A model generated the notes under the pieces. The model searched no databases, was not told the DNA's origin, and saw only the letters and a program-made list of their open reading frames with translations. From IMG/VR virus record IMGVR_UViG_2541047120_000012: 10,911 nt of DNA. The stretch is one strand, 5' to 3'. This document shows, one piece after another, positions 1,003 to 2,450 of this stretch. Position numbers and translations under genes: made by a program. Every line of letters starts with the position of its first letter. The first letter of the stretch is position 1. This stretch comes from a virus (Duplodnaviria; Heunggongvirae; Uroviricota; Caudoviricetes).

Positions 1003-1350
1003 TTACTTATCACATAAATCAAATGCAGCCTTAGTGACATCCCCCAGACTCTTTTTTAACCCTGGGGCGGCATCATTATCTAGCCAAAATGGATTATTGT
1101 TATCTAACGGTAACGCACCAAATGTTTTACCTTTTATTCGAGCCAAACCTGTAAGTGCATATAACTTATTATCGTCAAAATTCATCACATAAGGATTACC
1201 ATCAAGACACTGTAATTGAACCTCATCAGTATTAAATGGCCATACCCCATTGAAACTCTCACGTTCAATAGTTTTAAAAGGCATTGCGACGGCGGAAAAA
1301 GAAAACATAGATAAAAAAGTAACTAATAGTTGAACCTTTTTTACTTTCAT
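1003..1350 (-). CDS. Secreted YebY-like (DUF2511-like) periplasmic protein, 115 aa, with Sec signal peptide
   Basis: N-terminal signal peptide (MKVKKVQLLVTFLSMFSFSAVA, AxA-type cleavage site, no lipobox Cys). Mature part has a W-x-F-N-x-x-E-V-x-L-x-C...G-N-x-Y-V-x-N...DNNNP...L-C pattern recalled from E. coli YebY. RBS GAGGT 7 nt upstream; AT-rich; 5 bp upstream of the int start. Confidence 0.55.
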   Translation of the reverse strand: MKVKKVQLLVTFLSMFSFSAVAMPFKTIERESFNGVWPFNTDEVQLQCLDGNPYVMNFDDNKLYALTGLARIKGKTFGALPLDNNNPFWLDNDAAPGLKKSLGDVTKAAFDLCDK

Positions 1351-1379
1351 ATCATTACCTCAATTTAGCTCAAGTAAGA

Positions 1380-2030
1380 TTACAAATTAAAAAACGCCCT
1401 AGAAATGACACCGCCTACCAAAACCCCTACGCAGATAAAGAATATTATTTCTTTTGGATAAAGTCGGATTAATTCTGAAGCACGAAGTCGGACTTCTGGT
1501 AAGGTCGAACTCTCTATGTGGCTTGATGCCGATTGTTGCTCTAACCACGACAATGCAGACTGTAACTGAGAACGAGTAAGATCGTTTAAACGTCCTGTAC
1601 CGAAATTGATATGGCAATACCGCAGAAGTTTTTGTCGAAGTCCACAGTCTTCACTGTTACGTAGTAATAAACTTACAAGAGCCTTACAGGCATCATGATC
1701 TTTACATCGCTCAAGCATTGCATGCAGAAAACTCTCCGCTGTTTTATATTGATTTACTGTCATATCATCAATACCAGCTACACCAATCTCCGCATGTACT
1801 TTTTGCCAAATAATAAACGCTTCAGTATTGCTAGCTTCTGCAATAGCAGCAACCAAGCTATTTAGCTCCTTACGCTGAGCCTTAAGCAAAGGGCGATCGT
1901 CATCATCATTATTCGAAGGGATTGCGATATTGACGGTATGAGAACCATCATATCGCTCTATCTGAATATTCTTTTCGTGAAAATCACGCCCAGCAACGCG
2001 ATTGTTTGAACCGTTTGAGTTGACGGCCAT
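1380..2030 (-). CDS. Hypothetical tail-anchored membrane protein, 216 aa (disordered N-terminus with DDDD tract, central helical domain, single C-terminal TM helix IIFFICVGVLVGGVISRAFF)
   Basis: Long ORF with strong RBS (GGAGGTGAC then ATG), 15 nt after the repressor stop. Hydrophobic C-terminal stretch; N-terminal motif NGSNNRVAGRDFHE resembles the repressor C-terminus. No family recognised. Confidence 0.6.
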   Translation of the reverse strand: MAVNSNGSNNRVAGRDFHEKNIQIERYDGSHTVNIAIPSNNDDDDRPLLKAQRKELNSLVAAIAEASNTEAFIIWQKVHAEIGVAGIDDMTVNQYKTAESFLHAMLERCKDHDACKALVSLLLRNSEDCGLRQKLLRYCHINFGTGRLNDLTRSQLQSALSWLEQQSASSHIESSTLPEVRLRASELIRLYPKEIIFFICVGVLVGGVISRAFFNL

Positions 2031-2045
2031 GTCACCTCCCTACTA

Positions 2046-2450
2046 TCACCTACCCTTAGTTTCGTTATAGTCACGACCAGCGATACGGTTATTACCACCA
2101 GAAATATTTAACTCACGTCCTGATGGCTGAGTTTCCTTTTCACTGATCGCACCTTTTAAAGCCCCAATCACCGCGTTTTTCACATCTAACGAAGCTGCTC
2201 GAAAGCGAGTAATCAATTCCTGCTCATCATCGTTATAAGTTTCAGGTGAGTGAATTCCCAACACAACATACTGAACATCAAGGCCAAAACGAGACAGCGC
2301 TGCCAAATACGCAGCATCAGGAAAGCTATCTCCTTTCTCATATCTAAGCTGAGTTAGCTTTTTGACTCCACCAATGTCGCTCATGGCAACTTGACTAAGT
2401 CCCAATCTTTCCCTTTCCTCACGCAACCGCCGACCAATATCATTTTTCAT
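2046..2450 (-). CDS. XRE/Cro-C1-family HTH transcriptional repressor (putative prophage immunity repressor C), 134 aa
   Basis: N-terminal helix-turn-helix signature (RLREERERLGLSQVAMSDIGGVKKLTQLRYEKGDSFP). Divergent from the rightward early operon across an operator-like palindrome; the position matches P2 C relative to cox and int. Confidence 0.8.
   Translation of the reverse strand: MKNDIGRRLREERERLGLSQVAMSDIGGVKKLTQLRYEKGDSFPDAAYLAALSRFGLDVQYVVLGIHSPETYNDDEQELITRFRAASLDVKNAVIGALKGAISEKETQPSGRELNISGGNNRIAGRDYNETKGR

Follow-up and report, generated by a model that had tools for sequence, protein, structure and literature searches.

The window analysed here, a stretch of 10,911 nucleotides (IMG/VR record IMGVR_UViG_2541047120_000012), was identified by sequence match as a P2-like prophage located beside yecA in Escherichia coli O157:H7 and its relatives; with strain PV15-279 it shares 99.95% identity over positions 423-10480. 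Four genes lie in the same direction on the minus strand: an immunity repressor of 134 amino acids (aa; 2046..2450), a 216-aa tail-anchored inner-membrane protein of the Flk_N family (1380..2030), a 115-aa periplasmic DUF2511/YebY-like protein (1003..1350) and an integrase open reading frame (ORF; 383-997). A previous reading of the letters, hereafter the original prediction, had described the same arrangement with gaps of 15, 29 and 5 bp. The ORF list confirms the gaps, and profiles, AlphaFold2 (AF2) models and the sequence itself confirm the four identities. No terminator-like site was predicted on the minus strand between 1003 and 2450, and the operon-like arrangement under the repressor is real. 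The main feature of the locus had been missed, namely a motif shared by the C-terminal tail of the repressor and the N-terminal head of the 216-aa protein.

The repressor is an XRE-type helix-turn-helix (HTH) protein, divergent from an Arc-like and a Cox-like gene. It matches HTH_31, HTH_3 and HTH_19 with scores below the Pfam cut-offs, as well as PHROG families of transcriptional repressors and regulators. The AF2 model shows a five-helix HTH fold, in which the HTH domain spans residues 1-66 and two helices follow at residues 74-106, leaving a disordered C-terminal tail at 106-134. Within this tail lies the motif LNISGGNNRIAGRDYNE (residues 114-130; 2061..2111, minus strand), cited as ISGGNNRIAGRDYNE and modelled with a predicted local distance difference test score (pLDDT) below 50. 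The C-terminus reads ...LNISGGNNRIAGRDYNETKGR; the motif is followed by a basic end and then by a triple stop, TGA TAG TAG. Homologues of the repressor include ORF18 of Pseudomonas phage B3, gp17 of BcepMu and a Ps59 protein named 'repressor'. The tail is conserved across dozens of repressor clusters, and within the enterobacterial group it is conserved as strongly as the motif of the partner.

The 216-aa protein starts with MAVNSNGSNNRVAGRDFHEKNIQ and carries its motif, cited as NGSNNRVAGRDFHE, in a head that is also disordered in the monomer model (VNSNGSNNRVAGRDFHE, residues 3-19; 1974..2024, minus strand; pLDDT ~41). A second pseudo-repeat of the head, RYDGSHTVNIAIP (residues 26-38; 1917..1955, minus strand), was read from the sequences, and its counterpart in relatives (Hafnia, P0243, P0245) has the form xxGRDxVNIxxP. 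The cytoplasmic Flk_N domain (residues 46-175; 1506..1895, minus strand) consists of two tandem small helical bundles resembling the Red-beta C-terminal domain, lambda Orf and ORF6C kind, and it is a domain of the protein-binding kind. A C-terminal transmembrane anchor (residues 192-214; 1389..1457, minus strand) is supported by an AF2 helix and by hydrophobicity, with 15 strongly hydrophobic residues, IIFFICVGVLVGGVI, close to the C-terminus and almost no periplasmic residues beyond them. In 32 homologues of 58-98% identity, S5, G7, N10, R11, G14, D16 and E19 of the motif are invariant, and the linker ahead of the anchor varies freely.

The original prediction could not place the 216-aa protein in any family, which no longer holds. 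A precomputed match to Pfam PF27202 (Flk_N) exists for the near-identical protein P0001 and for 118 of 120 listed homologues, and residues 37-166 match positions 20-149 of the 339-position NCBIfam Flk profile (E = 8e-16, 58.2 bits). This score is far under the cut-off of 353 for Flk orthologues (PRK10715), and the protein is not classed as one. Flk_N as a curated Pfam family and the flagellar role of Flk are already known: Flk holds the flagellar type III export apparatus in its early mode and is cytoplasmic, with an inner-membrane anchor at its C-terminus (PMC13344023). Flk (Fluke, RflH) of Salmonella and E. coli resembles the 216-aa protein in having a homologous cytoplasmic domain and a single C-terminal anchor. 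However, Flk has 333 aa with a long Pro/Gln-rich linker that the 216-aa protein lacks, and, unlike Flk, the 216-aa protein has an N-terminal repressor-like motif, is encoded by a phage and lies directly 3' of a repressor.

An exhaustive profile search returned 139 Flk_N representatives, which fall into three groups. Phage-type proteins have ~185-225 aa and a C-terminal anchor, and the great majority of them carry the Gly/Asn/Gln-rich motif at the N-terminus. The 28 Flk-type representatives (median 336 aa) are without it, and the third group has an internal transmembrane (TM) helix and a short periplasmic end. A few matches were Rha/KilA/Bro-type phage regulators with the module at the C-terminus (P0349, P0369, P0378, P0379), and the 216-aa protein itself matched PHROG 245 (Ant) with E = 0.0045. 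Anti-repressors and Rha/KilA/Bro proteins with an ORF6C-type C-terminal domain, together with the C-terminal domains of Red-beta, RecT, Sak and lambda Orf, are among the closest known counterparts of the bundle; unlike them, the 216-aa protein has a duplicated bundle, is tethered to the membrane, carries a motif in front and contains no DNA-binding or annealing domain. The profile and structure searches that the original prediction had proposed yielded Flk_N for the 216-aa and DUF2511/YebY for the 115-aa protein, while a Protein Data Bank sequence search with the Flk_N profile gave no significant match. A Foldseek comparison of the Flk_N protein with viral models returned weak local matches only.

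The position of the Flk_N gene behind the repressor is strictly conserved. In 21 of 21 distinct Flk_N loci a repressor of the same family is found upstream, at a distance of -4 to +34 nt, and a single locus seems to depart from this, in the degenerating genome of an endosymbiont, where the gene is frameshifted (L008:6001-6631). A frameshifted Flk_N gene is also present in phage 520873 (CP025923.1:2048-3065), the sole deposited phage record with the module, together with a frameshifted DUF2511 gene. Decay or sequencing error could lie behind these frameshifts. Twelve genome loci (from Escherichia, Rosenbergiella, Mixta, Izhakiella, Enterobacter, Erwinia, Symbiopectobacterium, Hafnia, Arsenophonus and Serratia) share a constant order, with Cox-like and Arc-like genes on one strand and repressor, Flk_N gene, a variable interval and int on the other. 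The same order was found in Klebsiella, Citrobacter and further E. coli loci. The module is also frequent: 525 of 5426 complete E. coli genomes (~1/10), O157:H7 included, carry it in this single allele, and very many Klebsiella likewise carry repressor and Flk_N gene.

Through repressor homologues with a different tail, we reached Mu-like prophages of Pectobacterium, Gilliamella and Pseudomonas and similar metagenomic contigs, two of which count among the 21 loci, and here again a gene of the Flk_N family lies directly 3' of the repressor. The Pseudomonas gene (200 aa) has no precomputed Pfam match and was assigned with our own Flk_N profile. On one side of these loci stand a transposase gene, AAA_22 and/or further early genes, and on the other, as far as it was reached, holin and transglycosylase (SLT) genes; no integrase gene was found within the stretches read. 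Because the Flk_N gene stays with the repressor in these integrase-less phages, the 216-aa gene is not an insert between repressor and int. Judged by these comparisons of sequence, it is a fixed, conserved partner of the prophage repressor and not cargo. The original prediction would have been refuted by a conserved core gene with a known housekeeping role; it is indeed a conserved gene of its lineage, and no housekeeping role is known for it. In one E. coli P2-like phage the repressor is homologous but has no tail, and the place of Flk_N is taken by two unrelated genes (L034:2501-3632); one codes for a Cys-rich protein of 117 aa, the other for a coiled-coil tail-anchored protein of 140 aa. 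In that phage the neighbour is again membrane-anchored but lacks the motif.

Alignments of repressor tails with partner heads cover 12 lineages. The tail and head read GGNNRIAGRDYNE and GSNNRVAGRDFHE in E. coli, FNGDISGQFAGNQIIN and FNGTAQGQFSSRDIIN in Pectobacterium, GQIAGGNIY and EQIAGRDIY in Gilliamella, and FHGAVSGGVAARDIIN and FQGNVDGGVAGRDIVN in locus L033. Both motifs shift together: a separate matched pair is found in each of Pectobacterium, Gilliamella, Pseudomonas and three metagenomic lineages. When all tails were scored against all heads by local alignment, the cognate pair ranked first or second in every lineage except Arsenophonus (third, fourth). A permutation test gave p = 2e-5 for eight Mu-like lineages and p = 5e-6 with one P2-like lineage added, these lineages being few and related. 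The head of the partner often has two pseudo-repeats facing one in the repressor tail.

The same layout is present in two long-sequenced reference phages. In B3, ORF18 ends in ISVTGDGNRTAGRDFHERKE and the next gene, ORF20, starts with VNIEVTGSNNIVAGRDFIEN; its product has two TM helices and no Flk_N domain, and relatives of it were found in B3 and Ps59 only (L036:2444-3447). In BcepMu (L037:2450-3645), gp17 ends in QEQVFHGSVGQAVKVEG..., and gp18, an annotated membrane protein, has ...GKQEFNKPVGQAIQAGE... near its start and further AGRD-type repeats, followed by a body made up of a single Flk_N-like module plus a TM helix and a small end in the periplasm. The bodies of these partners differ, and the constants are therefore a repressor with a tail, a membrane protein that follows it, and a matched motif at their facing ends. 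In a lysogen of the B3-like phage Fc02, a repc-e4 transcript shows that the gene downstream of the repressor is co-transcribed with it (PMC9936078). This serves as an analogy only, as membership of e4 and RepC in the present families could not be confirmed.

The match is a property of the proteins. At identical motif residues, 30-78% of the codons are identical (below 60% in 11 of 12 pairs), and because synonymous codons differ, the match is kept at the protein level. With about half of the codons differing at identical residues, recent DNA exchange is not its cause, and gene conversion as the sole cause is ruled out by the same synonymous differences. A fusion of the repressor with the 216-aa protein by readthrough or frameshifting was also considered and rejected. 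Three in-frame stops are followed by a strong Shine-Dalgarno sequence (GGAGGTGA; GAGG precedes the 115-aa gene), the gaps between repressor and Flk_N gene are 8, 9, 11, 15, 17 or 18 nt among the loci, and the reading frames agree in some loci only. Since the stops stand at the junction and the frames differ between loci, no fusion protein is made.

Taken together, we consider it probable (about 60%) that repressor and 216-aa protein make up an immunity module of two proteins that are joined via the motif and encoded in a lysogeny operon with a cargo slot and int. The operon of the P2-like prophage would comprise the repressor and partner module, the swappable slot and int as its last gene. The C-terminal tail would fix the partner in the inner membrane, so that the Flk_N bundles and the disordered N-terminal segment face the cytoplasm. 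We infer that the genes are co-transcribed, that the two proteins touch through the motif and that this affects the switch. Binding of the two motif copies could take the form of paired beta-strands, perhaps with templating of the kind seen in amyloid-signalling pairs; tail-head binding would then place the repressor at the membrane, where some of the repressor molecules could be captured, held or converted by the partner. The cell membrane would thereby be linked to whether lysogeny is maintained or released, or to homo-immunity. Control may run from the partner to the repressor, or a membrane effector may be gated by the repressor. That the two copies relate to each other directly is favoured because binding to a host factor would not demand lineage-specific matching.

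Several points weigh against this proposal. The AlphaFold models are of single chains, and the contact between tail and head is deduced from sequence. The co-variation test rests on few, related lineages, and the case for co-transcription is made by close spacing and a lack of terminator-like sites. Part of the similarity could come from gene conversion that happened now and then and was followed by drift; the Gilliamella tail and head are identical at 34 of 51 nt. A common third binding partner would likewise keep both motifs alike. Finally, the motif carries conserved R, D and E residues, in which it differs from the published amyloid-signalling motifs, which are mostly uncharged.

Is the motif a template rather than a simple contact? 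By layout, the repressor and its partner can be likened to amyloid-signalling pairs, that is fungal HET-S/NWD2, the Bell/NLR pairs with BASS1-10 and E. coli Bab/Agp (BASS11). In those pairs, too, the genes are collinear neighbours that overlap or are separated by a few bp, and a motif of ~20 residues is C-terminal in the first product and N-terminal in the second. Their motif varies between families, matches within a pair and is disordered when soluble; here the monomer models are disordered too, and the match within pairs exceeds that between pairs (in the permutation test on few, related lineages described above). One of their partners is directed to the membrane, and the Bab/Agp abortive-infection system is prophage-borne. 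The two repeats of HET-S facing a single NWD2 repeat recall the two pseudo-repeats of the head and the one of the tail. The partners themselves are of another kind, however: an XRE repressor and a tail-anchored Flk_N protein here, a cell-death effector (Bab, or one with a pore-forming Bell or HeLo domain) and an NLR, STAND or TPR sensor there. The likeness of the motif, with its conserved charged residues, to amyloid motifs is one of layout, and BASS11 was compared by description. A templating motif, amyloid-like or beta-solenoid, through which the membrane protein would switch the repressor between active and inactive assemblies or the repressor would trigger its partner, is unlikely. It is ranked as a minority reading because the domains differ and the motif is charged. 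Simple motif-mediated association is the leading reading.

Other explanations were weighed against such an association. The 216-aa protein might be a stand-alone exclusion or abortive-infection effector expressed in the lysogen, whose place beside the repressor would serve only its expression from the prophage, as with lambda rexAB and cI, or it might be a membrane toxin checked by the repressor tail as by an HTH antitoxin; we regard both as unlikely. Position in the repressor operon and tail-anchored topology would suit this role, and the exclusion genes sie2009 and ltp lie between repressor and int in lactococcal and streptococcal phages. The order, an HTH protein with a disordered tail first and its partner second, also resembles type II toxin-antitoxin pairs. 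However, the tails of antitoxins are normally unlike their toxins, co-expression alone leaves the lineage-tracking copy of the tail in the head unexplained, and the anchor has nearly no periplasmic part that could meet an incoming phage. PADLOC 2.0, searched up to E = 1, gave no match of a defence model to the 216-aa or the 115-aa protein. The version with a gated toxin overlaps with the proposed module, because contact through the motif is needed there too. That the 216-aa and 115-aa proteins act jointly as one effector pair of membrane and periplasm that was inserted as a moron, as originally predicted, is very improbable. The genes are adjacent (29 bp apart) and both AT-rich, and they are found together repeatedly, in E. 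coli, Rosenbergiella, Klebsiella and Citrobacter. Yet most Flk_N loci are without DUF2511 and have other genes or nothing instead, slot alleles differ behind Flk_N genes that are identical or nearly so, and a periplasmic partner would find essentially no residues of the 216-aa protein on its side of the membrane. The comparative data thus already largely refute a pair.

The homology to Flk (NCBIfam Flk, PF27202) and the tail-anchored topology, which is the same as that of Flk (PMC13344023), would also allow an action on the flagellar type III export gate that alters flagellation of the lysogen. We give this little credence: the 58 bits stand against a cut-off of 353, the match is limited to the two-bundle domain, the 28 Flk-type representatives have no N-terminal motif, and the link with the repressor would be left unexplained. 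The family is moreover abundant in Klebsiella pneumoniae, which is normally non-flagellate, and occurs in insect endosymbionts. Equally hard to believe is that the motif is a functionless relic of a split ancestral membrane-anchored repressor, or a product of gene conversion between near direct repeats. The two copies do stand ~70 nt apart in direct orientation, and those of Gilliamella are alike in DNA. Against a relic, seven motif positions are invariant in the 32 partners, the tail is kept in dozens of repressor clusters, and synonymous sites differ. The pairing furthermore lasts across P2-like, B3-like and BcepMu-like phages despite different partner bodies, and a readthrough fusion is excluded by the triple stop and the inconsistent reading frames.

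Phage repressors are textbook soluble switches that are controlled by RecA, anti-repressors or proteases. If the association proposed here is true, a membrane-anchored partner that copies the repressor tail adds a new input to the lysis-lysogeny decision, for which membrane state, superinfection and envelope stress are possible sources. Such a partner has been kept with the repressor in three unrelated groups of temperate phages, in Enterobacterales, Pseudomonas and Burkholderia. Signalling by matched motifs of adjacent genes, hitherto tied to cell-death immunity, would then extend to gene regulation, and, should the templating variant be true, P2-like, B3-like and BcepMu-like phages would have a prion-like, RecA-independent control of lysogeny. 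A repressor-partner module with a co-varying terminal motif in several temperate phage groups is apparently undescribed. We found no paper on phage Flk_N proteins, B3 ORF20 or BcepMu gp18, nor on a motif common to a phage repressor and its neighbour, nor anything relevant on tail-anchored prophage proteins. B3 ORF18/ORF20 and BcepMu gp17/gp18 would be convenient experimental models.

The 115-aa gene behaves differently from the 216-aa gene. Its product has a KVKK n-region, a hydrophobic core and an AVA cleavage motif, all read from the sequence, which define a signal peptide at residues 1-22. It scores 28.4 bits against DUF2511 (PF10709; gathering score 21) and matches the YebY structure 7N0J with E = 0.0027, with C48 and C113 aligned. 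In YebY, Cys48 and Cys113 form a disulfide, and the protein closely resembles MlbQ, a lantibiotic self-resistance protein (PMC8689200). The 115-aa protein thus shares with YebY both cysteines at the disulfide positions and the signal peptide; unlike YebY, it belongs to a small subfamily in a prophage slot, between the Flk_N gene and int and outside the yobA-yebZ-yebY copper operon. Homologues of yebY beside a recombinase and a phage CI-type gene have already been noted in Enterobacteriaceae (PMC8689200). An envelope binding or protective role is the most likely one judging by these features, and this is a guess.

The phage-type DUF2511 subfamily comprises 18 clusters, and in seven of seven places read, from four host genera, its gene lies within the slot between Flk_N and int. 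The alleles of this interval are DUF2511, an acidic DUF8087 protein, a BRCT and WYL-like protein of 288-292 aa, a membrane protein of 242-244 aa, or nothing. In Klebsiella, at one attachment site, either the 288-aa gene or DUF2511 follows the same Flk_N gene. The same Flk_N gene is hence found with differing slot alleles, which marks DUF2511 as cargo and the 216-aa gene as fixed. Comparison of the interval among relatives, as suggested by the original prediction, therefore divides its claim: insertion between repressor and int, and the label moron, fit the DUF2511 gene, which is replaced or absent in relatives, and do not fit the 216-aa gene, which is constant and follows the repressor in every locus. 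The two genes are accordingly no pair, as most loci have the 216-aa gene without DUF2511. A promoter and terminator of their own were not found for the genes between 1003 and 2450, where the only promoter-like site is a weak one inside the 115-aa gene. The genes look like part of the repressor operon, and comparative sequence data support the 115-aa gene as lysogen-expressed cargo, with co-transcription deduced. In the Klebsiella (L013:4647-5513) and Enterobacter soli (L006:6635-7513) examples of the 288-292 aa slot protein the BRCT domain is N-terminal, and the WYL-like matches of this protein (PADLOC PDC-S48 and WYL) are weak.

This slot is the part of the locus that resembles known accessory genes of repressor operons. 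Lambda cI-rexAB, P22 sieB, lactococcal sie2009 and Streptococcus thermophilus ltp are expressed from the prophage with the repressor and have a membrane or envelope location, a pattern that the DUF2511 slot fits well. These genes vary between related phages and carry no repressor motif, whereas the 216-aa gene is fixed to the repressor; in sequence they are unrelated to the genes of the window, for which PADLOC was negative. A fixed regulatory gene can thus be told apart from a cargo slot that samples small envelope and DNA-damage-type proteins, which aids prophage annotation and the search for defence genes. The AT-richness noted in the original prediction is confirmed: G+C is 0.35 for the DUF2511 gene and 0.40-0.41 for the 216-aa gene, against 0.57-0.61 for the replication gene. 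The repressor and int are also lowish (0.43-0.45).

Intact copies of the prophage have the order int, DUF2511 gene, hypothetical 216-aa gene, transcriptional regulator and a divergent early operon of Cox-like, DUF4761, derepression protein, replication endonuclease and ParM genes, followed by portal, terminase and capsid genes. In the window, the end of an IS3-family element (C-terminus of transposase OrfB; 1..422, plus strand) interrupts int. As this element occupies positions 1-422, int is cut after ~191 codons: the P2-type tyrosine integrase part of the ORF is 423..997, its N-terminal ~191 codons, and in other O157 genomes int is intact with 333 aa. A second, inverted IS3-family copy lies at 10480-10911, after the partition gene, and is 91.7% identical to the left one over 168 comparable nt. 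The prophage segment is bracketed by both, and the inverted copies at both ends mark this prophage copy as a remnant severed from its late genes.

The switch region between the divergent operons (2451..2525) was described by consensus matches only; these place a promoter-like site at 2460-2488 (plus strand) within an imperfect inverted repeat (2439-2457 / 2473-2491). The lytic-side operon opens with a gene for an Arc-like (ribbon-helix-helix) protein of 68 aa (2526..2732, plus strand; PHROG 3431, E = 4e-27), which is conserved in 12 of 12 related loci. RefSeq does not have this ORF and calls instead a 45-aa hypothetical ORF on the opposite strand (2540-2677). Next is a Cox/Apl-like excisionase-repressor of 67 aa (2749..2952, plus strand; PHROG 575, E = 1e-27).

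Upstream of the replication gene, a 76-aa protein named 'derepression protein' in RefSeq (5595-5825, plus strand) is a candidate anti-repressor for the 134-aa repressor; from such names we take it to be P4 epsilon/Tum-like. A 357-aa minus-strand ORF (5733-6806) that overlaps the derepression and replication genes looks spurious. The replication endonuclease (6270-9092) has 940 aa with a long Gln/Arg-rich C-terminal extension, while P2 gpA, with ~760 aa, is much shorter. Directly 3' of it are a ParM/StbA-type actin-like segregation gene (9169-10128) and a gene for a small partition protein (10133-10447). Surveys of P2 hotspots describe the int-to-primase region as a minor defence hotspot. With the two partition genes, this P2-like prophage carries a plasmid-style partition module; it lies at the edge of the known gpA-gpQ hotspot.

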